DNA of 64,000 nucleotides from Squalus acanthias (lineage: Eukaryota), in contig CM059432.1 of NCBI GenBank assembly GCA_030390025.1, forward strand, positions 6,944,001-7,008,000, read 5' to 3'. The notes under the pieces are model-generated. The model was not told the origin of the DNA. It made no database searches and worked only from the letters and a program-made list of their open reading frames with translations. The translations under genes were made by a program, and so were the position numbers. Shown one piece after another: positions 4,276-61,744 of the stretch. How positions within the stretch are numbered: the first letter of the stretch is position 1; every line of letters begins with the position of its first letter.

Positions 4276-5081
4276 TTGACACAGGCCAGTCACGTCTAAT
4301 TCAATTTATGTACAATATAATTTAATTTTTCTTAAATCAAAATACTATCGAGTACGAATGAAGCTTGTTGAATTTGATGGCCTGGTATTTGGAATTGACT
4401 GAGGGGCCTCTGCGTATTCTGTGGCTTCCTGTGGCAGGATGTAGCACTTGCCATGAGGTTTTATAGAATACATGTCTGACATCAAAGCATTTTTTCATGA
4501 TACTGCCTCAAATTGAATATTTGTGTCAATGATTATATCGTATTTAGTACCTACTGGCATTACGCATCTTCCTCTCTCAAACCTCACAGCAGGTTCTAAA
4601 TATTTTAAAAGTGTGTGGGTTCAGGTGTGATAATACTGTATTAGAAAACATGTATTAGAGTATCAAATACAATCCTGTTTCAGTTGAAGAAATGTCTTAA
4701 TTATTATGGTAGCTTTATACTGGAAATCCATGTACTCAGTGAATCAGTGTCTTAGTTTGATGTTTCATGAATTATTTGCTAATAATTCTTTAATTTGGAT
4801 TCCTAGTAAAGCTCCTCCCTCTTGATCTGATAATTTCAAACACAGTTATATCTCAAGGATCATGATTATATTCCATTTTCAGCTATTATTTTGGTGGTGT
4901 AACAGTGGATAGTGATGGATTACTCAAAATATGGCATTTTAATGACACGTGTTTGAAACTGATTTTATTTTAATCACTCAATGCATATTGCATGGGGCTA
5001 GCACACCCTTTATGTCTTGTAGAAAAATAATAGCACAAGAGTAAAGGAGACGGGTCTAATTCAGTGTTGTCCAATACATTC

Positions 5082-13570: not shown

Positions 13571-16522
13571 CTTGTGTGAAACGATTTGCATTTAATGTAT
13601 TTATCTTTCCACATTTTCAAGTAAAAAAAAAAATCAAGGGTAGTGTTTATGCCAAAGTAAGTCTCTTATGATATCATTAGACGATACAATCTGCAGATGT
13701 GCTGTATAATTTCTAGCAAGTGCAACTTAACAAGTTTTTCACTGCATTTTTCCTCACATTTTCACAGCAGTTAAACAATCAGCAGAGCTGTCTCCTGGTT
13801 TTTTACTGTAAATCTGTGCCTCCCACCCAATAGCCTTTGAGAGAGTTCCATGCATCATAAAATACTAGCAGATCTTTCTTGGCATTGCTCGCATTAAGTC
13901 AGGAGGTATGCTTTTTATAAGGACAGGGACGTATCATTCTGCTGGTAAAGTGGGCTCTGTATTCCTTTAAGGCCACAATGCCTGATTATTAAGTCAAAAT
14001 TGGCTCAAAGTTTGTTTAGTGAGGGAATGTTGCATGAAGTGAAAGTGCTCGTAAATACAAAACTGTTGGCCCGAAGCATTTAAGTGACTGCCATTCTCTT
14101 CTTTTTTTTTAACTGTAATTGCTAAGGTCAATTAAAGGGCACAGGCATTCAGACTCCCGTGTCAATGTAAAAAATTATAATTAAAAATATATAAATTATT
14201 AGTGGATCTCCTGATCTTTGGTTGCCATGGTCAGAGCGTACTGTTTTAGACCAACGGGGGTGTTATGTCGTATAATGCTCAATTTACTATCCGAGCCACT
14301 GATTTTATGGTGACGACACAAGTGAGATTCTATTTTGTTGCACGGGATTCTGTGAATTTCATTGTGTTTTGGAAATCAAATTCCATGACTGTTGTTCTTT
14401 GTAAACTGTAAATGAAAGGTCTTGGTTATATAGTCATACTTGTTTAACTTTGTATTTTGATTTTATCTCTTCCCTTGTTTAAAAGCCCAGTAGAGAGGAA
14501 GGTGGTCCCAAACATGTAACTGATCCAGGCTAGGTGCCTGGTGTTTAGCAACACTGGGAGTGATGGGGCACAGCAGCAGTTTTGGGAGCACTGGGCGGGG
14601 GTGGGATTTCTCATTTTGCCATAACTGGAGTTAGGCAGCGCTGAGATGACGGTGTTGGGGTTTGGCAGCACTGGGATAAGAGACTCTCTAGTTCAGCAGA
14701 ATTGGAGGTGTAATGTGGAGTTTGACTTAACTAGCGGACTCCTGGGATCCATCAGTATTGGGGAGGGGGCGGGGGTGGAGAAAGGGTATGGTCGGACAAC
14801 ATTGGGGAGCTGGCAGCACTGTTTCGCAAGACATTTCCACAGAAAAAGTGTTTCGTTATTTGTCCCGAGCATAGGAAGTAAATACTGTTTTCCTTAAATA
14901 GATGAATAGCATGGTGGAATGAAGATTCCACTCTCCATGTCCTTGATTCGCTGGAACAATAAATAAACACACTAAAACGTATTTTTATTTTCAATCAGCA
15001 AAATTCAGTCGGCACTTTGTGCAGCTTTTGTTAAGTCGGTGGCGGGGGTAGGTAGCGGTTTCAATTAGCATCGTCCGCGGAACTGCGACATTTTCCAAAG
15101 AATGTTGCAGTGAGGAAAACCTTGCCTAATAATGCTGCTCATATTGGTACCAGACTCTTTCAACCAGCCAGTGTTGTTGACAATCACAAATACTGCCAGA
15201 AACAACTTCAAAAAATATTTACCGCAGACAAGTGTTTCAAATTGGGGTTTTTGGATAAAAGTGAGCTATGTTTTATCAGATTGTAGAAATTACAGCCCAA
15301 AAGGTTTTTCTTTTTCAAATACTTAGCCAGTTCCCTTTTAAATTATCTTATAGTCTTTGCCTCATAGCCATTCATAGCATTCATGTTCTAATACCCCTCT
15401 GTATGAAAACATTTCTCCCAACTCGCCCCTTTGTTCTTCATGATGATCCCAAGTTCATACCCACTCGATATTAACGTCAATTTTTTTTCCATTATGATTA
15501 AACCTTACACGTTATCATCCGCACAGGCACTTCACGTCATCCTGTATACATAATGGAGCATCAACAGGGTTTAGACCAACTTGAAACCAGGGAAGTACGA
15601 TTTAGATTTTGGAAAAGCCCGTGTTAAACCAGCTACCCAAACTCAAAGTGAACTCAGGAGTGATTTGTTCCCCGTTCACTTGGTGTCACATAAATACACC
15701 CTCAGTAAAAACATGAATTAAGATGCGCCAACTTTAGAATTACGTTTAATCATTTTATTGTGAAGTATGTGCATTTTAACAAATCATATTTTGCACATTA
15801 TAAATTTTAGTTACTGAAGAAAAAATAGTCAGCTAAAATGTTTTCAAAAGTTGCCTTGAGTGATTTGATTGGTTTGCCGTTCTGTCTTCTCGTGGTAGGC
15901 TTCCTTTACTGATCATGCAGGACGAATGTTTTCATAAGCCACTAGTAGTTACTCATTGGCAGTTTTCTAACTGCTTTTTTTTGATTTGTACGTTCCTTAC
16001 CTCGTCAGTTTTGATCTTCTGTCTTTTTACTTTGAGTGAGTCAACAAAGTGCGATAGAGGAGGGTGACAGGAAAGTAGGAAGCATCATGATGAACTAAAA
16101 AATGAATTCTACCAAAATGACCTCAGAAAAAGTTGAAGTTCATGCCTTGACTTGCCTTTGAGGTTTTTTTTTAAATTCAAGCTCTGACTGCCAAGTCTTG
16201 TCAGTCAAAAAGGTTTCGAGAAGTCTTCTACACATGTGCATGTTGTGAGCTGTAACGTCCCAGTCTCTTCTGCTAATGCTGATGGTCTGCAAACTTGCAG
16301 CATCTCAAAGCTCAGACATCCCATACCTGCATAATCTCTGACAGGAAGCATTGTTATGGCATTTCATACCCAGAAGCTATTGTACAGATAAATAATTATT
16401 TTCTTGTAAACTTATTATCTCTCTTATATCAAACCTTTTCTCAGTTGTAACTCCTTAGGCTTGGTGAAAAAGCAAGCTCGCTGGTAAAAAGAACCTTAAA
16501 AGATTAGGAGCAATTTGATTGG

Positions 16523-17456
16523 GGATTAATTAAGAGGGGGAAAAATAGAATATGAGAGTAAGTTTGCAGGGAACATAAAAACTGACTGTAAAAGCTTCTA
16601 TAGATATGTGAAGAGAAAAAGATTAGTGAAGTCAAGCGTAGGTCCCTTGCAGTCAGAATCAGGGGAATTTATAATGGGGAACAAAGAAATGGCAGACCAA
16701 TTAAATACATACTTTGGTTCTGTCTTCACAAAGGAGGACACAAATAACCTCCCAGAGATGTCGGGGAACATAGGGTCTAATGAGAGGGAGGAATTGAATG
16801 AAATCAGTATTTGTAGGGAAATGGTGTTAGGGAAATTGATGGGATTGAAGGCCGATAAATCCCGAGGGCCTGATAATCTACATCCTAGGGTACTTAAGGA
16901 AGTGGCCCTAGAAATAGTAGATGCATTGCTGGTCATCTTCCAAAATTCTATAGACTCTGGAACAGTTCCCATGGATTGGAGGGTAGCTAATGTAACTCCA
17001 CTATTTAAAAAAGGTGGTAGAGAGAAAATGGGGAATTATAGACCGGTAAGCCTGACATCGGTACTGGGGAAAATGCTAGAGTCCATTATAAAAGATGTAA
17101 TAGCAGAGCACTTGGAAAACAGTGACAGGATCGGACAAAGTCAGCATGGATTTGCAAAAGGTAAATCATGCTTGACTAATCTACTGGAATTTTTTGAGGA
17201 TGTAACTGGTAGAATAGATAAGGGAGAACCAGTGGATGTGGTGTATTTGGACTTTCAGAAGGCTTTCAATAAGGTCCCGCATCAGAGATTAGCGTGCAAA
17301 GTTAAAGCACATGGGATTGGGGGTAAGGTACTGACTTGGATAGAGAACTGGTTGGCAGACAGGAAGCAAAGAGTTGGAATAAACGGGTCTTTTTCCGAGT
17401 GGCAGGCAGTGACTAGAGGGGTACCGCAGGGATCGGTCCTAGGACCCCAGCTATTC

Positions 17457-17496
<40 letters not shown>

Positions 17497-18450
17497 CTAG
17501 ACGAGGGAACTAGATGTAATATCTCCAAGTTTGCAGATGATACAAAGCTGGGTGGGCGTGTGTGCTGTGAGGAGGATGCAGAGAAACTCCAGTATGATTT
17601 GGACAGGTTGGGTGATTGGGCAGATGCAGTATAATGTGGATAAATGCGAGGTTATCCACTTTGGTGGCAAAAACAGGAAGACAGATTATTATCTGAACAG
17701 CAATAGATTGGGAAAAGGGGAAGTGCAACGAGACCTGGGTGTCCTTGTGCACCAGTCGCTGAAGGTAAGCATGCAGGTGCAGTAGGCGGTTAAGAAGGCA
17801 AATGGTATGTTGGCCTTCATAGCGAGAGGATTCGAGTACAGGAACAAGGATGTCTTGCTGCTGTTGTACAAGGCCTTGGTGAGACCACACCTTGAGTATT
17901 GTGTGCAGTTTTGGTCGCCTTATCTGAGGAAGGATGTTCTTGCCATGGAGGGAGTGCAGCGAAGATTTACCAGACTGATACCTTGGATGGCAGGAATGAC
18001 GTATGAAGAGAGATTGGGTCGATTAGGCTTATATTCGCTAGAGTTTAGAAGAATGAGAGGGGATCTCATTGAAACTTACAAAATTCTGACAGGACTAGAC
18101 AGACTAGATGCAGGAAGGATGTTCCCGATGGCGGGGGAGTCCAGAACCAGAGGACACAGTCTAAGGATAAGGGGTAAGCCATTTAGGACTGAGATGAGGA
18201 GGAATTTCTTCACCCAGAGAGTGGTGAACCTGTGGAATTCTCTACCACAGAAGGCAGTTGAGGCCAATTCATTAAATATATTCAAGAAGGTGTTAGATAT
18301 ATTTCTTAAGGCTAAGGGGATCAAGGGATATGGGGAAAAGGCAGGGACAGGGTACTGAATTTGGATGATCAGCCATGATCTCATTACATGGCGGAGCAGG
18401 CTCGAGGGGCTGAATGGCCTACTCCTGCTCCTATCTTCTATGCTTCTATA
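16523..18450 (+). mobile_element. 5'-truncated CR1 LINE ORF2, disrupted
   Basis: NYRPVSLTS, QHGF.KGKSCLTNLL, YLDFQKAF and [10 protein letters not shown]; (TA)16 expansion at 17461-17492; in-frame TAG near 17783. Confidence 0.96.
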
Positions 18451-18454
18451 CAAT

Positions 18455-19098
18455 TGGTATGTTGGCCTTCATAGCGAGAGGATTTGCGTACAGGAGCAAG
18501 GATGTCTTGCTGCAGTTGTACAGGGCCTTGGTGAGACCACACCTTGAGTATTGTGTGCAGTTTTGGTCGCCTTATCTGAGGAAGGATGTTCTTGCCATGG
18601 AGGGAGTGCAGCGAAGATTCACCAGACTGATACCTGGGATGGCAGGAATGACGTATGAAGAGATTTTGGGTCAATTAGGCTTATATTCGCTAGAGTTTAG
18701 AAGAATGAGAGGGGATCTCATTGAAACTTATAAAATTCTAACAGGACTAGACAGACTAGATGCAGGAAGGATGTTCCAGATGGCGGGGGAGTCCAGAACC
18801 AGGGGTCACAGTCTAAGGATAAGGGGTAAGCCATTTCTGACTGAGATGAGGAGGAATTTCTTCACCCAGAGAGTGGTGAACCGGTGGAATTCTCTACTAC
18901 ACAAGGCAGTTGAGGCCAACTCATTAAATATATTTAAGAAGGAGTTAGATATATTTCTTAAGGCTAAAGGGATCAAGGGATATGGGGAGAAAGCAGGGAC
19001 AGGGTACTGAATTTGGATGATCAGCCATGGTCTCATTAAATGGCGGAACAGGCTCGAGGGGCCGAATGGCCTGCTCCTGCTCCTATCTTCTATGTTTC
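18455..19098 (+). mobile_element. Second CR1 3' end in direct tandem with the previous copy
   Basis: Near-identical repeat of 17802-18450. Confidence 0.95.
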
Positions 19099-20043: not shown

Positions 20044-20425
20044 AAACATAGAAACATAGGAGATAGGAGCAGGAGTAGGCCATTCGGCCCCTCGAGCCTG
20101 TTCCGCCATTTAATGAGATCATGGCTGATCATCCAAATTCAGTACCCTGTCCCTGCTTTCTCCCCATATCCCTTGAGCCCTTTAGCCTCAAGAAATATTT
20201 CTAACTCCTTCTTGAATATATTTAATGAATTGGCCTCAACTGCCTTCTGTGGTAGAGAATTCCACAGGTTCACCACTCTCTGGGTGAAGAAATTCCTCCT
20301 CATCTCAGTCCTAAATGGCTTACCCCTTATCTTTAAACTGTGACCCCTGGTTCTGGACTCCCCCGCCATCGGGAACATCCTTCCTGCATCTAGTCTGTCT
20401 AGCCCTGTTAGAATTTTATAAGTTT
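20044..20425 (-). mobile_element. CR1 3' fragment, same subfamily as 16523-19098
   Basis: Minus ORF MFPMAGESRTRGHSLKIRGKPFRTEMRRNFFTQRVV. Confidence 0.93.
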
Positions 20426-48175: not shown

Positions 48176-48995
48176 CTCCAGTATAACTCCAGCCTAGTGA
48201 AACGTCACGCATTTAGTGCCCAGATATTCTATTAGGGTCTTCTGAAACTTATTTTTCAACTTTTTTTTGATACTAGGAGGGAGATATTAAAAGTTAAAGA
48301 CGCAAGGGTGGACCACTGCGCATTTGTCCAAACGACTATACACAGAGAATTCCTTTACGGATAACTAGATAAAAAGGCAGTATAACACTGGGGCTTCAGA
48401 TTCTAAGCCTACTGCGCTTAAGGACCTTTAAACTGAGTATCAACCTCTGAACTTTTTCTAGGGCTTCAATTTCAACCCACCATTTAAGGGAGCAAAACTG
48501 GACACAGTATTCTAAATGAGGCCTAACCAAGATTTTGCATAAGGACAGCATAGTATTTTTTTGTATTTAATTGTTCTGGCACTCTATTTACTTTTGCAAC
48601 ACTGGTCATGGACCTTAAGAGATTCACGTACTATAACTCCTAAGTCTTTAGTCTTTCTCTGCTCAACAGCCCTGAGCTCACGGCCCTGCACGGTGAACCC
48701 ATACTTGGTGCAAACCCTACCCAAGTGCCTATACTGGATTTATTTTTATTGAATGACACCTGCCTGCCCCATCGCATCTAGATCTGCTTGTAGTCTAGTT
48801 TCCTCAACATGGATCTGAACATCCACACAAATCTTAGTATTATCCGCAAACTTGTGGACAATTCCCCCGAATCCTTCGTCCAAATGATAGATAAAAATGA
48901 TGAAAAGCAAGAATAGAAGATAGGAGCAGGAGTAGGCCATTCGGCCCCTCGAGCCTGCTCCGCCATTCGATGAGATCATGGCTGATCATCCAAAC

Positions 48996-51980
48996 TCAGT
49001 ACCCTGTACCTGCCTTCTCCCCATATCCCTTGATACCTTTAGCTTTAAGAAATATATCTAACTCATTCTTGAATCTATTTAATGACTTGGCCTCAACTAC
49101 CTTCTGTGGTAGAGAATTCCACAGGTTCACCACTCTCTGGGTGAAGAAATTCTTCCTCATTTCTGTCCTAAATGGCTTCCCCCTTATCCTTAGATTATGA
49201 CCCCTGGTTCTGGACTCTCCAACCATTGGGAACATTCTTCCTGCATCTAGTTTGTCCAGACCTGTCAGAATTTTATATGTTTCGATGAGATCCCCTGTCA
49301 TTCTTCCATACTCCAGCGAGTATAAGCCCAATCTCTCCTCATATGTCATTCCTGCCATCCCAGGTATCAGCCTTGTGAATCTTCGCTGAACTCCTTCCAT
49401 GGCAAGAACATCCTTCCTCAGATAAGGTGACCAAAACTGCACACAGTACTCAAGGTGTGGTCTCACCAAGGCCCTGTACAACTGCAGCAGGACATCCCTG
49501 TTCCTATACTCAAACCCTTTCGCTATGAAGGCCAGCATACCATTTGCCTTCTTCACCGCCTGCTGCACCTGCATGCTTACCTTCAGCGACTGGTGCACAA
49601 GGACACCCAGGTCTCGTTGCACTTCCCCTTCTCCCAATCTATTGCCATTCAGATAATAGTCTGCCTTTCTGTTTTTGACACCAAAGTGGATAACCTCGCA
49701 TTTATCCACGTTATATTGCATCTGCCACGCTTCTGCCCACTCACCCAACCTGTCCAAATCATCCTGGAGTTTCTCAGTATCCTCCTCGCAGCACACACGC
49801 CCACCCAGCTTTGTGTCATCTGCAAACTTGGAGATATTAAATTTAGTTCCCTTATCTAGATCATTAATGTATATTGTGAATAGCTGGGGTCCAAGGACCG
49901 ATCCCTGCGGTACCCCACTAGTCACTGCCTGCCACTCGGAAAAAGACCCATTAATTCCTACTCTCTGCTTTCTGTCCGCCAACCAGTTCTCTATCCAAGT
50001 CAATACCTTGCCCCCAATCCCATGTGCCTTAACTTTACACGCTAATCTCTTATGCGGGACCTTATCGAAAGCCTTTTGAAAGTCCAAATACACCACATCT
50101 ACTGGTTCTCCCTTACCTATTTTACCAGTTACATCCTCAAAAAATTCCAGTAGATTAGTCAAGCACGATTTACCTTTTGTAAATCCATGTTGACTTTATC
50201 CGATCCTGTCACTGTTTTTCAAGTGCTCAGCTATTACATCCTTTATAATGGACTCTAGCATTTTCCCCACTACCGATGTCAGGCTTACCGGTCTGTAATT
50301 CCCCGCTTTCTCTCTACCACCCTTTTTGAATAGTGGGGTAACATTAGCTACCCTCCAATCCATGGGTACAGTTCCAGATTCCATCGAATGTTGGAAGATG
50401 ATCAGCAATGCATCTACTATTTCTAGGGCCACTTCCTTAAGAACCCTAGGATGTAGATTATCAGGCCCTCGGGATTTATCGGCCTTCAATACCGTCAATT
50501 TCCCTAACACCATTTCCCTGCAAATACTGATTTCTTTCAGTTCCTCCCTTTCATCAGACCCTATGTTCTCCAACATCTCTGGGAGGTTATTTGTGTCCTC
50601 CTTTGTGAAGACAGAACCAAAATATGCATTTAATTGAGCTGCCATTTCTTTGTTCCCCATTATAACTTCCCCCGCTTCTGACTGCAAGGGACCTACACTT
50701 GATTTCACTAATCTTTTTCTCTTCACATATCTATAAAAGCTCTTACAGTCAGTTTTTATGTTCCCTGCAAGCTTACTTTCATATTCTATTTTCCCCTTCT
50801 TAATTAATCCCTTTGTCCTCCTTTGTTGAATCCTAAACTGCTCCCAATCCTCAGGGTTACTGCTTTTTCTGGCCAATTTATATGCCCTCTCCTTGGATCT
50901 TATGCTATCCCTAATTTCCCTTGTTAGCCACGGTTGAGTCACCCTTTTTGTTTTATTCTTATGCCACACTGGGATGTACAAATTCTGTAGTTCATCCATG
51001 CAGTCTTTGAATGTTTGCCATTGCCTATCCACCGTCAACCCTTTGAGTGACATTCCCCAATCAATCCTACCTAATTCGCGCCTCATACCATCGTAGTTTC
51101 CTTTATTTAAATTCAGGACCCTAGTCTCTGATTCAACTACTTCACTCTCCATCCTAATGAAGAATTCTATCATATTATGATCACTCTGACCCAAGGGGCC
51201 TCGTACAACAAGATTGCTAATTAATCCTTTCTCGTTACATAATAACCAGTCTAAGATGGCCTGATCTCTGGTTGATTCCTCGACATATTGTTCCAGAAAA
51301 CCATCCCGTAAACATTCTCGGAATTCCTCCTCCACAGTATTTTTACTAATTTGGTTAGCCCAATCTATATGTAAATTAAAGTCACCCATGATGACTGCTG
51401 TGCCCTTACTGCATGCTTCTCTAATTTCCCTTTTAATGCCGTCCCCAACCTCCATATTACTGTTTGGAGGTCTATATACCACTCCCACTAACGTTTTCTG
51501 CCCCTTGTTATTTCTCAGTTCTACCCATACAGATTCCGCATCATCAGAGCTAATATCCTTCCTTTCAATTGTGTTTATCCCCTCTTTAACCAGCAATGCT
51601 ACCCCACCTCCCTTTCTTTTTTGCCTATCTTTCCTAAATATTGAATACCCCTGGATGTTGAGTTCCCAGCCTTGGCCACCCTGGAGCCATGTTTCTGTAA
51701 TCCCAATCAAATCATATTCATTTACCTCTATTTGCGCAGCTAATTCATCCACCTTGTTCCGAATGCTCCTTTCATTAAGACACAAAGCCTTCAGGCTTGT
51801 TTTTTTAACGCTCTCAGACCTATATGAATTATTATTTACTGTGACCATGTTTGATTTAAACCATTGAGTTCTTTGCCTTCTACTTTTGTTTTTCTCCTTC
51901 CTGTCTTTTGCTTTTATCCTTGTTTCCCTTTCCTCTGTCTCCCTGCTCAGGTTCCCAACCCTCTGCCACTTTAGTTTAAA
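48996..51980 (-). pseudogene. CR1 ORF2 (APE endonuclease + RT) with one nonsense change at 50196-50198
   Basis: ITETWL, YRPP, GDFN, SDHN, YLDFQKAFD and FADDTK; TAA stands where the paralogue at ~17136 has CAA (DRIG*SQHGF); 9-bp in-frame deletion in YEERLG(RLG)LYS. Confidence 0.93.
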
Positions 51981-52927
51981 CCCTCCCCAACAGCACTAGC
52001 AAACACTCCCCCTAGGACATCGGTCCCGGCCCTGCCCTGCCCAGGTGCAGACCGTCCCGTTTGTACTGGTCCCACCTCCCCCAGAACCGGTTCCAATGTC
52101 CAAGGAATTTGAATCCCTCCCCCTTGCACCATTCCTCTAGCCACGTATTCATTCGAAATATCCTCCTATTTCTACTCTGACTAGCACGTAGCACTGGTCG
52201 CAATCCTGAGATTACTACCTTTTGAGGTCCTATTTTTTAATTTACCTCCTAACTCCCTATATTCTGCTTTTAGGACCTCATCCCGTTTTTTACCTATATC
52301 GTTGATGCCTATGTGCACCACGACAACTGGCTGTTCGCCCTCCCCCTCCAAAATGTTCTGTAGCCGCTCCGAGACATCCTTGACCCTTACACCAGGGAGG
52401 CAACACACCATCCTGGAGTCTCGTTTGCGGTCGCAGAAATGCCTATCTATTCCCCTTACAATTGAGTCCCCTTTCACTATAGCTCTTCCACACTTTTTCT
52501 TCCCAGCCTGTGCAGCAGAGCCACCCATGGTGCCAGGAAGTTGGCTGCTGCTGCCTTCCCCTGATAAGTCACCCCCCCCAACAGTATCCAAAGTGGTATA
52601 TCTGTTTGAGAGGGGGATGGCCACAGGGGACCCTTGCACTACCTGCCTGCACCTCTTACTCCGCCTGGTGGTCACCCATTCACTTCCTGCCTGTACACCC
52701 TTTACCTGCGGTGTGACCAACTCGCTAAACGTGCTATCCACGACGTTCTCAGCGTCGCGAATGCTCCAATATGCATCCATCCGCAGCTCCAGCGCCGCAG
52801 TGCGGTCTATCAGTAGCTGCAGCTGGATACACTTCCCACACACATGGTCGTCAGGGACACAGGAAGCATCCCTGATTTCCCACATATAGCAGGAGGAACA
52901 TATCATGGGGCGGAGCTCTCCTGCCAT
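51971..52927 (-). pseudogene. CR1 ORF1 (CxxC...CxxC zinc finger, coiled coil, SGNH/GDSL esterase), two frameshifts
   Basis: CSSC...CGKC, GDSIVRG, VVHIGINDIG and DGLHL; an extra A near 52220 and a 5-bp duplication near 52035; ends GVFASAVGEGLN*. Confidence 0.9.
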
Positions 52928-54156
52928 GACTTACCCTTTAATTAATTAATTAATTAATTAAAATTAAATTAAATGAATCCCACCAATTTCACTTCAATTA
53001 AATGATATACACAAGGGCCCTTTCCCGACACTGGCCTCTGTAAAAAGCCCACGAAAGTGAGTTTAACTACTCTCTGTGCTGCTGCTCTCTCCGCTCCCGA
53101 CACTGGCCTCTGAAACCAATCCCTGCGGGACTCTGCTAGTGACTGTTTCCCGCAAAACCACTGCCATTAGTAACAACCTCCGCCTACGAGAAAGCAACCA
53201 ATTCCTTAACCAACACAAAATCTGCCTGCTTATCCAGAGTTACGCTTTCTTATTAAGTAGCCTTAATTCGGGTCATTTTTATGCAGTGACACACGTTATT
53301 TTAGGAGGCGCAGCAAGTTTGGATGAGAACATTCATCCACATTTGCCTTATGGGATATTCTAATATACAGGAGTTGAGTCCCACTTTGGTAAAACACAAA
53401 TATTTAACCAGCATTTTGGCTATCAAAGAGAAAGTCCAAGAGTATTTTATTGCTTTGTCCTGACCCAGGGTTTAGACTTGATTGCAAACTAATCATCAAA
53501 ACCGCCAACCAAAAAAAAATTGGTAATGCAGCTTATGTTAATTGAGACGAATCTTTTTTCAGTTATACTTCTCTTTAATCTAGCCAAGATTAACTTGATT
53601 TATAAAACAACATGGGTTGTATAACTGACACATATATCAGTTCTTCTGTTTACCATGTCTTAATGTCGAAACATAATATAGTCTTGTTGGAAAATAAATG
53701 ACATCATCCTTGTAATGGGATGACCTGAGGAAACGAGTGAAACATTCTTCTTCGTTTCTCGAATGTTAAACACATCTTGAAATATTTATGGACTTGTATT
53801 TTATAAACAAAATGCTTTTCGTGTACTTTGCGAATTGGGACCACTGGTGCTATTAAACAGCAAATCCTCGTGGTATAAAATGCACAGAATCGTAGAATAG
53901 AATAGTACAGCACAGAAGGAGGCCATTCGGCCCATCGAGTCTGCGCCCGCTCTTCCAAAGAGCAATAGTATTAGGTATGTAGAGTACGCATTTTAAACCG
54001 CTTTTTCAATAACTTTCTTAACTACCCACATCAAATTCATCTAGATATTAAATATGATTGTCTTTTTGATGTAGCATCGCGCAGGATCCTTTTTTTTAAC
54101 CACTATGACAAATGGTTGACCAGACACACAATGCTCACTGGTTTGTGCCCTCACAG

Positions 54157-54360: not shown

Positions 54361-56191
54361 GTGAGTGAGTCTCGAGCAACGCAAGATATTGGCTACAGCT
54401 GCTGCCTCAAGCAAACCTGGAGGCAAATGCAACTGCTATTAGTGAATGCATTCATTTCAGCAGCCTATTAGTGCAATAAACTCTGTGTGAAATCTTCCCT
54501 TTTAATCCCATTTGCTACTCTATATAATAACAAAATGCAACTACTAACAACAGCAGAGTATAGTTTGTTTCACAAACGAGGAAGATCTCACAACTAGTGA
54601 GTGAAATAAACTGGATATTTCACCGTTCCATTCAGTCTTTCCAACAGATGGAGAAACTAAGATACATAGAATCATAGAATATTACAGCACAGAAGGGGGC
54701 CATTCGGCCCATCGAGTCTGCACCGGCTCTTTCAAAGAGCAATCCAGTTACTCCCACTCCCCCCGCTCTTTCCCCATCTTCCTGCAAATCTTTCTCCTAA
54801 GTATTTAATTTGTTTTAATATACGGTTTAATAAATATTTGAATTGGGATAATTACAAGCAGGAATTTCCTCATTGTACCCTGTGAACAATTTGCCATTAA
54901 GGTGACTATCTGCCATTTTGACGTTCCCCATGGCTGGGAGAAAGTGTTAATTTGGCTGTACATTAAATAAAAAGCGAAAAAAACGATTGTAAGAAATCCG
55001 AACTAAAACCAGAGCATGCTGGACAGACACAACGTAATTCTGTCTATATCTGAAAACATATCGATTTTTACATAGAGATTGTTTCTCGGTACTGATTTTT
55101 TGCGAGGCTATTTCAGCTCCATATTACTACATGTTATCTTGAGTGAGTGGCCATATAATGGATACTGAGATACCTGAAAAGAATGAAAGATTTGGTTGTA
55201 GCTAACCTCACCATCAGTAGCTGTGCAAACAATTATACACTTGCCACTTCAATTCCATACATTAGACAAAAAGTGGTATGCGCATAAAGCCCGTGAATAT
55301 ATCATAAGAACATAAGAAATAGGAGCAGGAGTAAGCCGTTTGGCCCCTCGAGCCTGCTCTGCCATTCAATAAGATCATGGCTGATCTGATCTTGGCCTCG
55401 ACTTCCCCGTAGCTCAATATCTGTCTATCTCCGCCTTGAATATATTCAATGACTCTGCCTCCACAGCTCTCTGAGGTAGAGATTTCCAAAGATTCACGAC
55501 CCTCTGAGAGAAGAAAATCCTCCTCATCTCCGTTTTAAATGGGCGACCTCTTATCCTGAAACTGTGCCCCCTAGTTCTAGATTCCCCACGAGGGGAAACA
55601 TCCTCCCTGCATCTACCCTGTCAAGCCCCCTCAGAATCTTATATATTTCAATAAGATCACCTCTCATTCTTCTAAACAACAACAACAACTTGTATTTATA
55701 TAGCGCCTTTAACGTACTCCAATGAGTATAGGCCCAACCTGCTCAACCTTTCTTCATAAGACAACCCCTTCATCTCGGGAATTAACCTAGTGAACCTTCT
55801 CTGAACTGTCTCCAATGTAAGTATATCCCTCCTTAAATAAGGAGACCAAAACTGCACGCAGTACTCCAGGTGTGGTTTCACCAACACCCTGTACAGTTGT
55901 AGCAAGACTTCCCTACTTTTACACTCCATCCCCCTTGCAATAAAGGCTAACATTCCATTTGCCTTCCTAATTACTTGCTGTACCTGCATGCTAACTTTTT
56001 GTGTTTCATATATGAGGACCCCCAGATCCCTCTGTACCGCAGCATTCTGTAATCTCTCTCCATTTAAATAATAATTTGCTTTTTTATTCTTCCTACCAAA
56101 GTGGATAACCTCACATTTTACGACATTATACTCCATCTGCCAAATTTTTGCCCACTCACTTAACCTATCTATATCCCTTTGCAGACTCTTT

Positions 56192-57825: not shown

Positions 57826-58630
57826 GGGCTGGATTTTGCCAATGGGGAGCTTTTGGAGGCGGGACTCCCACTTGTTGGGTTTCAGTCCCGCTTCCATCAA
57901 CTTCTGGCCAACCCAAGCTATTTTCCCTTGATTGACCTTGTTAAGCCCGCCCAGCAGGCTTAGCAGGCCAATTAAGGGAAAGCCGGTTACAGAGAACGTC
58001 AACGTATGACGTTTCATCTGTCAAAAATTTTTGACAGATGGATTGTCATCGTTTGACAGCTCTGTGAAGCTGTCAAACACTGACATTCTCTGTAGTTTGA
58101 TGAATTCTTGAATTCAAGACTCATCAAACCTCTTTCTTTTGCAGAAATTAGATGGTTGTTGCATTGGAGAATGCAACGGCCATCTGTCATCTCTGCCGCG
58201 GAGGTGCGAGACTCTCCGCATACCCACCGATTGAAGCCTGCAGGAAGAAACAAAGGTAAGTACACTTTTTCTAACACTTTCCACTTACCTCACATACTCA
58301 CCTCTCCACACTTGCACCCATCACTCACCTCCACAGCACACTTTTGGACCCCTCCGACCCCTACAGCCCCACTACTCGCCTCAGTGACCCTGGCGGGGTT
58401 CGGAGCCTTCGGGAAGCCCGCACTTTTGAGGGTAAAATGGGGATAATCCTCTTATCTAACAGGCAGATAAGTGGCACTAATCCCCTTCCCGCCTCCAAGG
58501 AGACGGGACCCGGCGCGGGACGCTTACCTGCCTCCTGGGAAGATGGCATGGGGGCGGGTTGGGCACCCGCCCCCAAATTCTGCCATTTTCCCGGCAGTCC
58601 CGCCTCCCCAGGGCTGGCAAAATCCAGCCC
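57826..58630. mobile_element. Harbinger-type MITE (relative of family A), perfect 15-bp TIR, TSD TTT
   Basis: GGGCTGGATTTTGCC / GGCAAAATCCAGCCC; TTT at 57823-57825 and 58631-58633. Confidence 0.92.
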
Positions 58631-59390
58631 TTTGTTTTCTGTTCGTTAGCCAATCCTCTATCCATGCTAATATATTACCCCCAACCCCGTGAGCTCTTAT
58701 CTTGTGTAGTAACCTTTTATGTGGCACCTTATCGAATGCCTTCTGGAAATCCAAATACACTACATCTACTGGTTCCCCTTTATCCACCCTGCTCGTTACA
58801 TTCTCAAAAACCTCTAGTAAATTTGGCAAACACGATTTCAATTTCATAAAACCATGTTGACTCTGCTTGATTGTATTATGATTTTCTAAATGTCCTGCTA
58901 TTACTTCCTTAATAATGGATTCCAGCATTTTCCAATGAAAGATGTTAGGCTAATTGGCCTGTAGTTTCCTGCTTTCTGCCTCCGCCCCCTTTCTTGAATA
59001 GTGGCGTTACATTTGCGGTTTTCCAATCCGCTGGGACCTCTCCAGAATCCAGGGAATTTTGGTAGATTACAACCAACACATCCACTATCTCTGCAGCCAC
59101 TTCTTTTAAGACCCTAGGATGCAGACCATCAGGTCCAGGGGACTTGTCAGCCTTTAGTCCCATTAGTTTGCCTAGTACTTTTTCTCTAGTGATAGTCATT
59201 GTTTTAAGTTCCTGCTTCCCTATAGCCCCTTGATTATCAATTATTATTGGGATGCTTTTAGTGTCTTCTGCCGTGAAGACTGATACAAAATATTTGTTCA
59301 AAGTCTCTGCCATTTCCCTGTTTCCCATTATTAATTCCCCAGTCTCATCCTCTAAGGGACCAACGTTTACTTTAGCTACTCTCTTCCCTT

Positions 59391-60805
59391 TTCAAGAAAG
59401 GAGGGAGAGAGAAAACAGGGAACTACAGGCCAGTTAGCCTGACATCAGTCATCGGGAAAATGCTGGAATCCATTGTTAAGGAAGTGGTATCAGGGCACTT
59501 AGAAAATCATAACTTGATTAGGCAGAGACAACATGGTTTAATGAAAGGGAAATCGTGTTTGACAAATTTATTAGAGTTTTTTGAGGATGTAACTAGCAGG
59601 GTAGATAAAGGGGATGTAGTATATTTGGATTTCCAAAAGGCATTCGATGAGGTGCCACATAAAAGGTTATTACACAAGATAAGGGCTCATGGGGTTGGGG
59701 GTAATATAATGCATGGATAGAGGATTGGTTAACGGACAGAAAACAGAGAGTAGGGATAAACGGATCTTTTTCAGATCCACTAATCCCCTTCCCGCCTCGG
59801 GGAGGCGGATCCCAGCACAGGTCGGGTACCCGCCTTCAGCGAAACTGGCATGGGGGCGGGATGGGGTCGGGACCCCCGAATCTGCTATTTTCAATCCAGA
59901 CCTGCCTCCACGGCTCAATGAAAATTCTGCCCAAAGAGTCTGCAAAGGGATATAGATAGACTAAGTGAGTGGGCAGTAAGGTGGCAGATGGAGTATAATG
60001 TAGGGAAATGTGAGGTTATTCACTTTAGTAGGAAGAATAGAAAAACAGAAATTTTTTTAAATGGCGAGAAACTTTCAAATGTTGGTGTTCAGAGAGATTT
60101 GGGTGTCCTTGTGCAAGAAACACAGAAAGCTAACATGCAGTTACAGTAAGCAATAAGGAAGGCAAATGGCATGTTGGCCTTTATTGCAAGGGGGTTGGAG
60201 TATAAGAGTAAGGAAGTCTTGCTACAATTGTACAGGGCCTTGGTGAGACCGCACCTGGAGTACTGTGCACAGTTTTGGTCTCCTTATCTAAGGAAGAATA
60301 TACTTGCCTTGGAGGCGGTGCAACGAAGGTTCACTAGATTGATTCCTGGGATGAGAGGGCTGTCCTATGATGAGAGATTGTGTAGAATGGGCCTACACTC
60401 TCTGGAGTTTAGCAGAATGAGATGTGATCTCATTGAAACATACAAGATTCTGACATGGATTGACAGGGTAGATGCTGAGAGGTTGTTTTCCCTGGCTGGA
60501 GTGTCTAGAACTAGGGGGCATAGTCTCATGATAAGGGGCCGGCCATTTAAGACGGAGATGAGGAGGAATTTCTTCACTCGGAGGGTTGTGAATCTTTGGA
60601 ATTTTCTGACCCAGAAGGCTGTGAATGCTGAGTCTTTGAGTATATTCAAGGCTGAGATAGATAGATTTTTGGACTCATCAAGGGATATGGAGATCGGGCG
60701 GGAAAGTGGAGTTGAGGTCCATGATCAGCCATGATCTTATTAATTGGCGGAGCAGGCTCAAGGGTCCGTATGGCCGACTCCTGCTCTTATTTCTTATGTT
60801 CTTTT
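59391..60805 (+). mobile_element. 5'-truncated CR1 inserted in opposite orientation into the minus-strand CR1
   Basis: NYRPVSLTS, YLDFQKAFD, RPHLEYCAQFWSP; tail ttcttatgttct. Confidence 0.92.
59777..59932. mobile_element. Right end of a family A Harbinger MITE; its left part and adjacent CR1 sequence are deleted
   Basis: Highly similar to ~29322-29488; ends AAAATTCTGCCC followed by AAA-GAGTCTGCAAAGGG. Confidence 0.85.
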
Positions 60806-61744
60806 GCTCTTATATACCTGTAGAAGCTCTTACTGTCTGTTTTTATATTTTTTGCTAGTTTACTTTGATAATCTATCTTCTCCCTCTATTATTTTTTTGA
60901 TCATCCTTTCCTGGTTTCTAAAAATTTCCCAATCCTCTGGCCTACCACTAATCTTCGCAACATTGTATGCCTTTTCTTTCAATTTGATACCATCCTTAAC
61001 TTCCTTCGTTAGCCATGGATGGTTCATCCTTCTCGTAGAGTCTTTCTTTCTCACTGGAATAAACCTTTGCTGAGAGTTGTGAAATATCTCCTTAAATGTC
61101 TGCCACTGGTTATCTACCGTCTTACCCTTTAATCTATTTTCCCATTCCACTTGAGCCAACTCTGTCTTCATACCTTTGTAACTGCCTTTATTTAAGTTTA
61201 GGACACTAGTTTCAGACCCAAGTTTCTCACCCTCAAACTGAATTTGAAATTCAATCATGCTATAGTTGTTGATCAGTAGTTATCAGATTTGCAATAGTTG
61301 TTGGAGAAGGAAAAGTCATTCCTTTTGCAATGTTAGCCCATTGTGTGTTAAATTTGAATTGCACCATTTAGTGTGATGGTTTTCTTTTTTGTTTATTCGT
61401 TTCGGGGATGTGGGCGTTGCTGGCAAGGCCAGCATTTATTGCCCATCCCTAATGGCCCTTGAGACGGTGGTGGTGAGCTGCCTTCTTAAATGGCTGCAGG
61501 TGTTTATCAAAGCAAAAATCTAAACGCAATAAGTAGTTTGCAGTATGGTGCAATAAGAGAATTCTATGTTCAAGTTAAGTTGATGTGTATACCAGATTCA
61601 CACTTACTTTTATAAATTCAAAGGAATTATTTCTACATTCAATGTGTACACCGGTCAAGGTTAGTCCTAAGCTGCTCTTGGCAGTATTTTAGGAATTAAG
61701 TGAATCCTGTTGTCTTCTGTCAATTTTGAGGTTTTCTTAACTTT

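Follow-up and report, generated by a model that had tools for sequence, protein, structure and literature searches.

A conserved in-phase slippery heptamer at the ORF1/ORF2 junction of esterase-type CR1 LINEs points to -1 ribosomal frameshifting

CR1 long interspersed nuclear elements (LINEs) make up the dominant repeat of birds, reptiles and sharks. It is not yet settled how a bicistronic RNA yields the protein of a LINE's second open reading frame (ORF2), and initiation on L1 is described as unexplained in passages of the literature. We analysed a 64,000-nucleotide (nt) window of Squalus acanthias DNA (contig CM059432.1, positions 6,944,001 to 7,008,000; coordinates below count from the first letter of this window), whose minus strand carries a LINE copy that we take to be CR1 from its architecture. 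At the end of its first reading frame (ORF1) stands a slippery heptamer, and comparison with relatives makes it probable, in our judgement, that -1 programmed ribosomal frameshifting is how CR1 LINEs of the esterase type express ORF2, yielding an ORF1-ORF2 fusion.

According to sections of the review PMC5009743, retroviral gag-pol and coronavirus 1a/1b place an X_XXY_YYZ heptamer at the end of a structural ORF and the polymerase in the -1 frame, an arrangement that the CR1 junction shares, together with a polymerase ORF that in some CR1 families has no AUG of its own. Unlike those viral sites, CR1 junctions display no hairpin or pseudoknot that we could find 5-9 nt downstream, and unlike gag-pol, CR1 is a LINE without long terminal repeats (non-LTR) in which no protease domain was detected to cut a fusion. 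The junction therefore resembles a gag-pol or 1a/1b -1 frameshift site but fails the classical test of a structured stimulator. [quoted passage not shown] Among APE-type non-LTR elements, Dictyostelium TRE5-A and TRE3-A are said in passages of PMC5911963 to require a -1 frameshift for ORF2, although they belong to another LINE group and an amoeba host; for Paramecium elements, passages of PMC5405496 suggest +1 frameshifting or reinitiation. SART1 and L1 share a bicistronic RNA with CR1, and passages of PMC3708506, PMC5009743 and PMC1965478 describe UAAUG coupling for the former and an AUG-independent ORF2 start for the latter. Some CR1 families resemble SART1 in carrying TAATG or an AUG 2 nt past the stop, but SART1 and L1 make a separate ORF2 protein (ORF2p), and those passages describe no conserved slippery heptamer for either. 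The architecture found here is the one that passages of PMC4120745 give for CR1 subgroup 7 with ORF1 type IVB, where a zinc finger or leucine zipper is joined to an esterase in ORF1 and ORF2 is APE-RT; those passages are silent on the translation of ORF2. The term CR1 is absent from the first 300,000 characters of PMC5009743, and no statement on CR1 frameshifting was found in the literature searched, which left primary CR1 papers, Repbase and Dfam entries and supplements outside its scope.

In the window, as an earlier note on this DNA had observed, the minus strand reads GAG GGT TTA AAC TAA, with T_TTA_AAC in X_XXY_YYZ phase immediately before the ORF1 stop (coordinates in Table 1). In the -1 frame no stop interrupts 51995 to 50199 (599 amino acids), a stretch that passes an ATG at 51848, 44 codons past the first base of the heptamer, and runs on through the endonuclease. 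An xLN end in each of the 10 homologues that extend to the final esterase motif (a subset of 16 sequences retrieved from 19 matches) shows the terminal ORF1 frame to be correct. TTTAAAC occurs 17 times on the two strands of the window and TTTAAACTAR once, and 10% of 20,000 shuffles keep the linker between heptamer and endonuclease free of stops in the -1 frame; such frequencies make a single copy weak evidence, and our case is built on conservation. Other copies of this genome were seen through contigs of four sequencing runs, and none of the 40 variants listed, of 171, falls within 51980-51971. The window copy itself is dead, with two insertions in ORF1 and a TAA in ORF2, so that a ribosome cannot reach the junction in this copy.

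The retrieval of further loci, 39 from metagenomes and 9 from host-contaminated bacterial assemblies, relied on an esterase motif well upstream of the junction, and the sample was therefore not selected by the signal. Junctions were located with a profile of the ORF1 end, and additional copies were drawn from three host-contaminated bacterial assemblies. The comparison covers seventeen junctions: that of the window, 14 from metagenome loci, and those of L040 and L043. The other 25 of the 39 metagenome loci have no readable junction, mostly ending before it, and in L017 the junction is deleted. TTTAAAC proved exact and in phase in 15 of the 17, and in 13 it is followed by TAA or TAG. Of the 15 junctions long enough to show it, 13 have GGGGG at +11 to +15, with 7 nt between the stop and the run; the two misses are the window and the degraded L003. 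Across 12 representative junctions the heptamer and the TA after it are identical throughout, G stands at +11, +13, +14 and +15 in all 12, and at +12 in 11. Twenty copies from a single assembly, G001, retain the heptamer in 19 cases, TAG in 20 and the G-run in 17.

These junctions fall into three lineages, namely shark, amniote-type (a label that we presume from bird and reptile CR1) and a third with two families, and ORF2 identity between lineages is 31-37%. When lineage representatives are compared, identical columns number 9/9 at -7 to +2 and 4/5 at +11 to +15, as against 1-4 of 60 at +16 to +75. Wobble positions are among the conserved letters: the T that precedes TTA, the choice of TTA out of six Leu codons, and the G at +11 and at +14, whereas amino acids vary at the codons neighbouring them. 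Nucleotide conservation at the junction exceeds protein need, and the signal is real and clade-wide rather than special to the window family. The downstream frame is maintained as well: among 27 distinct junctions the endonuclease lies in the -1 frame in 22, behind linkers of 108-264 nt, and 21 of these 22 are free of stops between heptamer and ORF2; the remaining five are out of frame.

The source assemblies deserve a remark of their own. G001 (L040-L042, L044, L046-L048), G002 (L043) and G003 (L045) are bacterial assemblies that contain animal-type CR1 DNA; G001 is heavily host-contaminated, since it measures 17.8 Mb against 0.5-1.1 Mb in the 20 relatives listed, and among 179 genomes of its family no match was found besides G001. 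Viral contigs, plasmids and phages were scanned for relatives, and none were found. In three G001 copies (L096, L082 and L084) the 5' truncation point lies no more than about 50 nt from the junction, that of L096 being immediately ahead of the heptamer and beside a CA repeat; selection on an intact endonuclease start may explain this clustering. L002, L040 and L043, all with an esterase ORF1, represent CR1 families distant from the shark and amniote types; passages of PMC4120745 place the esterase ORF1 in vertebrate subgroups only.

Protein data offered a second view of the junction. A profile search for ORF1 gave 6784 protein matches, the best 150 of which were taken; the resulting set holds 164 proteins, and 95 contain the motif DG[LV]H. 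These 95 end in LN in 52 cases, GN in 10 and KN in 2, counts that are not probabilities because the proteins are related and the search profile ended in LN. For U_UUA_AAC the codon ahead must have T as its last letter, so that E, Q, K, M and W are ruled out, and the residue before terminal LN is compatible in 51/52 proteins, whereas internal LN is preceded by an incompatible residue in 17/104 instances. G_GGA_AAC requires a preceding codon with final G, and here the residue before terminal GN is compatible in 10/10 (Q in 8). Overall, the last tripeptide is slippery-compatible in 65/95 ORF1 proteins as compared to 770/24,709 internal tripeptides (3.1%), and 30 of the 43 proteins that do not end in LN have a compatible tripeptide within the tail, as compared to 15.5 +/- 2.8 in 2000 shuffles (maximum 28). 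Such ends recur in separate branches of a quick tree, and xGN and SKN ends, read from proteins alone, would fit G_GGA_AAC and A_AAA_AAC.

A search for longer proteins returned two matches and a single esterase-endonuclease fusion model (P0181), joined at the heptamer position, which we set aside as support because it is probably one indel-bearing copy. P0181, P0010 and P0182 are ray proteins that contain CR1 ORF1 under the names hydroxyacid oxidase 2, 40S ribosomal protein S24 and V-set protein, probably annotation artefacts. The look-alikes of another ORF1 protein, P0086, are summarised taxonomically as "Eukaryota, commonest Chordata".

We then considered where ORF2 could start. L040, which appears intact, displays a 365-codon open ORF1 frame followed by a 962-amino-acid open -1 frame from the heptamer, whose first Met is residue 59, past the endonuclease motif NARS at 45-48; no Met lies upstream. 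In a structure model of this frame, a low-confidence segment (1-36) is followed by a strand (38-45) and a helix (50-63), all beginning before Met 59, so that a protein started at that AUG would be predicted to lack both. The modelled fold matches the L1 endonuclease in profile and fold searches; a single-sequence PDB search with L040 returned nothing useful. From the motif we presume that the Asn of NARS is equivalent to the Asn of Zorro3 and to L1 Asn14; profile alignment puts it two residues off L1 Asn14. A missense change of an Asn early in the Zorro3 endonuclease lowered retrotransposition to below 5% (passages of PMC1965478). L002 and L043 are likewise Met-free up to the endonuclease motif. 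Over the 27 junctions, 14 are open and Met-free up to it, mostly copies of one family. ORF2 is without an AUG in two families. The ATG at 51848, whose conservation the earlier note had left to be checked across families, is not shared by sister families, in which P0165 and P0166 have Arg at the aligned site. The motif itself is NERS at 51772 in the window copy, the letter of the usual NARS being found in 87-100% of depth in the four runs.

The sequence downstream of the heptamer, where the earlier note had seen a G-rich tract with a small stem, was only partly as described: the G-run is conserved, but the stem is weak and not common to the junctions. The A at 51962 that interrupts the run is private to the window copy, G being present in 98-100% of depth in 4/4 runs. 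The window stem reaches -6.8 kcal/mol, with z-scores of -1.0 to -1.7 over 50-100 nt as compared to base shuffles, and no G-quadruplex, which the note had proposed to look for, is predicted downstream of the heptamer in the window. A classical stable hairpin or pseudoknot 5-9 nt downstream was not found in an analysis that did not model pseudoknots directly, and the three fold windows with z below -2 (L006 twice, L011 once) are family-specific. What the junctions display instead is a linear motif at the fixed spacing of 10-14 nt seen in the arterivirus type, with the G-run starting at +11, and since there is no shared hairpin, quadruplex or pairing partner, the run looks like a linear stimulator. 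According to sections of PMC5009743, a review of 2016, a distance of 12-15 nt from the shift site is found for a minority of stimulators, the characterised ones being tied to trans-acting factors. The spacing equals that of the PRRSV motif, and by this analogy suggests that the G-run may be bound by a protein or by ribosomal RNA (rRNA).

Taken together, these observations suggest the following sequence of events. Ribosomes translating ORF1 would arrive at U_UUA_AAC with the stop codon next; the majority would terminate there and release the ORF1 protein (ORF1p), whereas a minority would slip back by one base, tRNA-Leu moving from UUA to UUU and tRNA-Asn from AAC to AAA, and would read the flexible linker into endonuclease and reverse transcriptase, producing an ORF1p-ORF2p fusion like Gag-Pol. 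The pause would probably have two sources, the adjacent stop and a GGGGG without structure, which at +11 to +15 would sit close to the entry channel for mRNA. Such a fusion had been proposed in the earlier note for the window family; the conserved in-phase heptamer and the -1 position of ORF2 support it, and the arrangement extends well beyond that family. More tentatively, as a minority possibility, the junction could be an ancient structure-free signal across animals whose G-run is bound by ORF1p, a host G-run binder or rRNA, and which sets the ratio of ORF1p to ORF1-ORF2p, possibly through feedback, and holds the polymerase at the ORF1p particle in the way that Gag holds Pol.

Several points weigh against frameshifting. 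From sequence we infer that ribosomes slip, that a fusion protein results and that the G-run has a part in this. No common hairpin or pairing partner at a shared offset was found among the 12 junctions. Fourteen of the 95 protein tails hold no compatible tripeptide; GN, KN and FF ends are known from protein, not DNA; and the sequences are related, some near identical, and not independent, with a search profile that itself ended in LN. The comparison upstream of the heptamer (0/30 identical columns) is ungapped and lowered by differences in ORF1-tail length. Of the 10 linker variants listed, only 2 leave the amino acid of the -1 frame unchanged, and the linker therefore appears to be without amino-acid constraint. 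Finally, the window ATG at 51848 is unvaried among the variants listed and may therefore be kept in its family.

Start codons near the stop bring in the best-surviving alternative, which we regard as rather unlikely: termination-coupled reinitiation, in which the restart would use a -1-frame AUG located at +3 or +6 or, as has been proposed for L1, any codon, while the G-run keeps the small subunit attached and ORF2p is made as a separate protein. It would account for five amniote-type junctions (L004, L006, L011, L014 and L031) whose +6 codon is an in-frame ATG, for the TAATG of L028, which the start MWQG of P0165 would imply for that protein too, and for the ATG in good Kozak context in the window family, all of which count against frameshifting; the UAAUG coupling of SART1 (passages of PMC3708506) and the AUG-independent ORF2 start described for L1 (passages of PMC5009743 and PMC1965478) provide precedents. 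A SART1-type stop-adjacent AUG in the ORF2 frame is present in 6 of the 17 junctions and absent in the window, L002, L007, L009, L040 and L043, and as L1 is described as starting ORF2 without its AUG, a missing AUG is in itself no proof of frameshifting. Reinitiation leaves unexplained, however, the invariant X_XXY_YYZ before the stop and the switch between LN, GN and KN protein ends. The +6 codon is elsewhere TGG, TCG or GGG, which are not near-cognate starts, and out-of-frame AUGs stand beside the stop in L008 and in a variant of the window family; this variant, at 51969 (37-79% of depth in the four runs), creates its AUG just past the stop without altering the amino acid encoded in the -1 frame. 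Frameshifting and reinitiation may coexist, and some families may additionally reinitiate at a nearby AUG.

A role outside decoding, with the motif serving as a nucleic-acid signal (for example an internal promoter, the splice acceptor of an ORF2-only mRNA or a ribonucleoprotein packaging site), we consider very improbable. Its maintenance at the nucleotide level and a donor-like GGTAAGT just 5' of the window ORF1 ATG would suit this idea, but the phase is fixed relative to both frames, and an ORF2-only RNA would still have no AUG before the endonuclease motif in L002, L040 and L043. Splicing was rejected, as the donor-like site is absent at that position in 9 other junctions and pyrimidines make up 33-50% of the 30 nt before +5. 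Chance or a protein constraint, with ORF1p needing a C-terminal Leu-Asn and the heptamer incidental, is barely credible: the prevalence of LN ends and a single copy that is not improbable by chance speak for it, but it is largely refuted by the fixed codon choice (TTA, AAC and the preceding T in 15/17 junctions), with GN or KN ends in other clades and the G-run distance kept.

Features of the window element are listed in Table 1. Its ORF1 is at most 76% identical to chondrichthyan ORF1 proteins, the named relatives being sharks and rays, and its zinc-finger and coiled-coil labels are presumed, in part from passages of PMC4120745. On the broken window pieces the ORF1 esterase domain PF13472 scores below the cut-off, and it scores above it on the homologues L040, P0181, P0086, P0109, P0108 and P0097; ORF2 matches PF03372, PF14529 and PF00078 (APE endonuclease and reverse transcriptase). 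Both ORF1 insertions (near 52220 and near 52030) are missing from part of the related contigs. The 3' end of the element is common with other CR1 copies of the window (query 4388-4392), and no target-site duplication was found around it. Those other copies are many 5'-truncated fragments of 67-95% identity (1128-2259, 16522-19093, 20056-20425, 55306-56175, 58630-61258 and others), none of which extends to the ORF1/ORF2 junction. The donor-like GGTAAGT lies at 52935-52927 on the minus strand and is preceded by a (TTAA)6 run at 52938-52961.

Table 1. Features of the CR1 copy and its ORF1/ORF2 junction (window coordinates)
Feature	Position	Strand	Basis
Near full-length inactive CR1 LINE copy	48909..53150 (5' end approximate)	minus	esterase ORF1, endonuclease and reverse transcriptase
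ORF1, broken: zinc finger, predicted coiled coil, SGNH/GDSL esterase	51971..52927	minus	homologue matches
1-nt insertion in the window copy, leading to premature stop 52183-52181	52220..52222	minus	comparison with related contigs
5-nt insertion in the window copy	52029..52036	minus	comparison with related contigs
ORF2 in the -1 frame, with APE endonuclease and reverse transcriptase domains and an early TAA (50198-50196)	48996..51980	minus	
Slippery heptamer U_UUA_AAC in X_XXY_YYZ phase	51974..51980	minus	sequence
ORF1 stop codon adjoining the heptamer; TAA or TAG across families	51971..51973	minus	
G-run at +11 to +15 after the heptamer (GAGGG in the window copy), candidate linear stimulator	51959..51963	minus	
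Purine-rich linker, open in the -1 frame, of family-variable length, predicted disordered in the homologue model	51795..51970	minus	
In-frame ATG in good Kozak context; family-specific, Arg in sister families	51846..51848	minus	

If frameshifting is true, the CR1 polymerase would be an esterase-endonuclease-reverse transcriptase fusion, annotated ORF2 starts would be wrong, and screens for intact CR1 should demand the junction motif rather than an ATG. The structure-free G-run at +11 would then be a new kind of frameshift stimulator, with the whole signal contained in 22 nt, and if it is read by a trans-acting binder, the junction would give a major family of vertebrate transposons a regulated switch.

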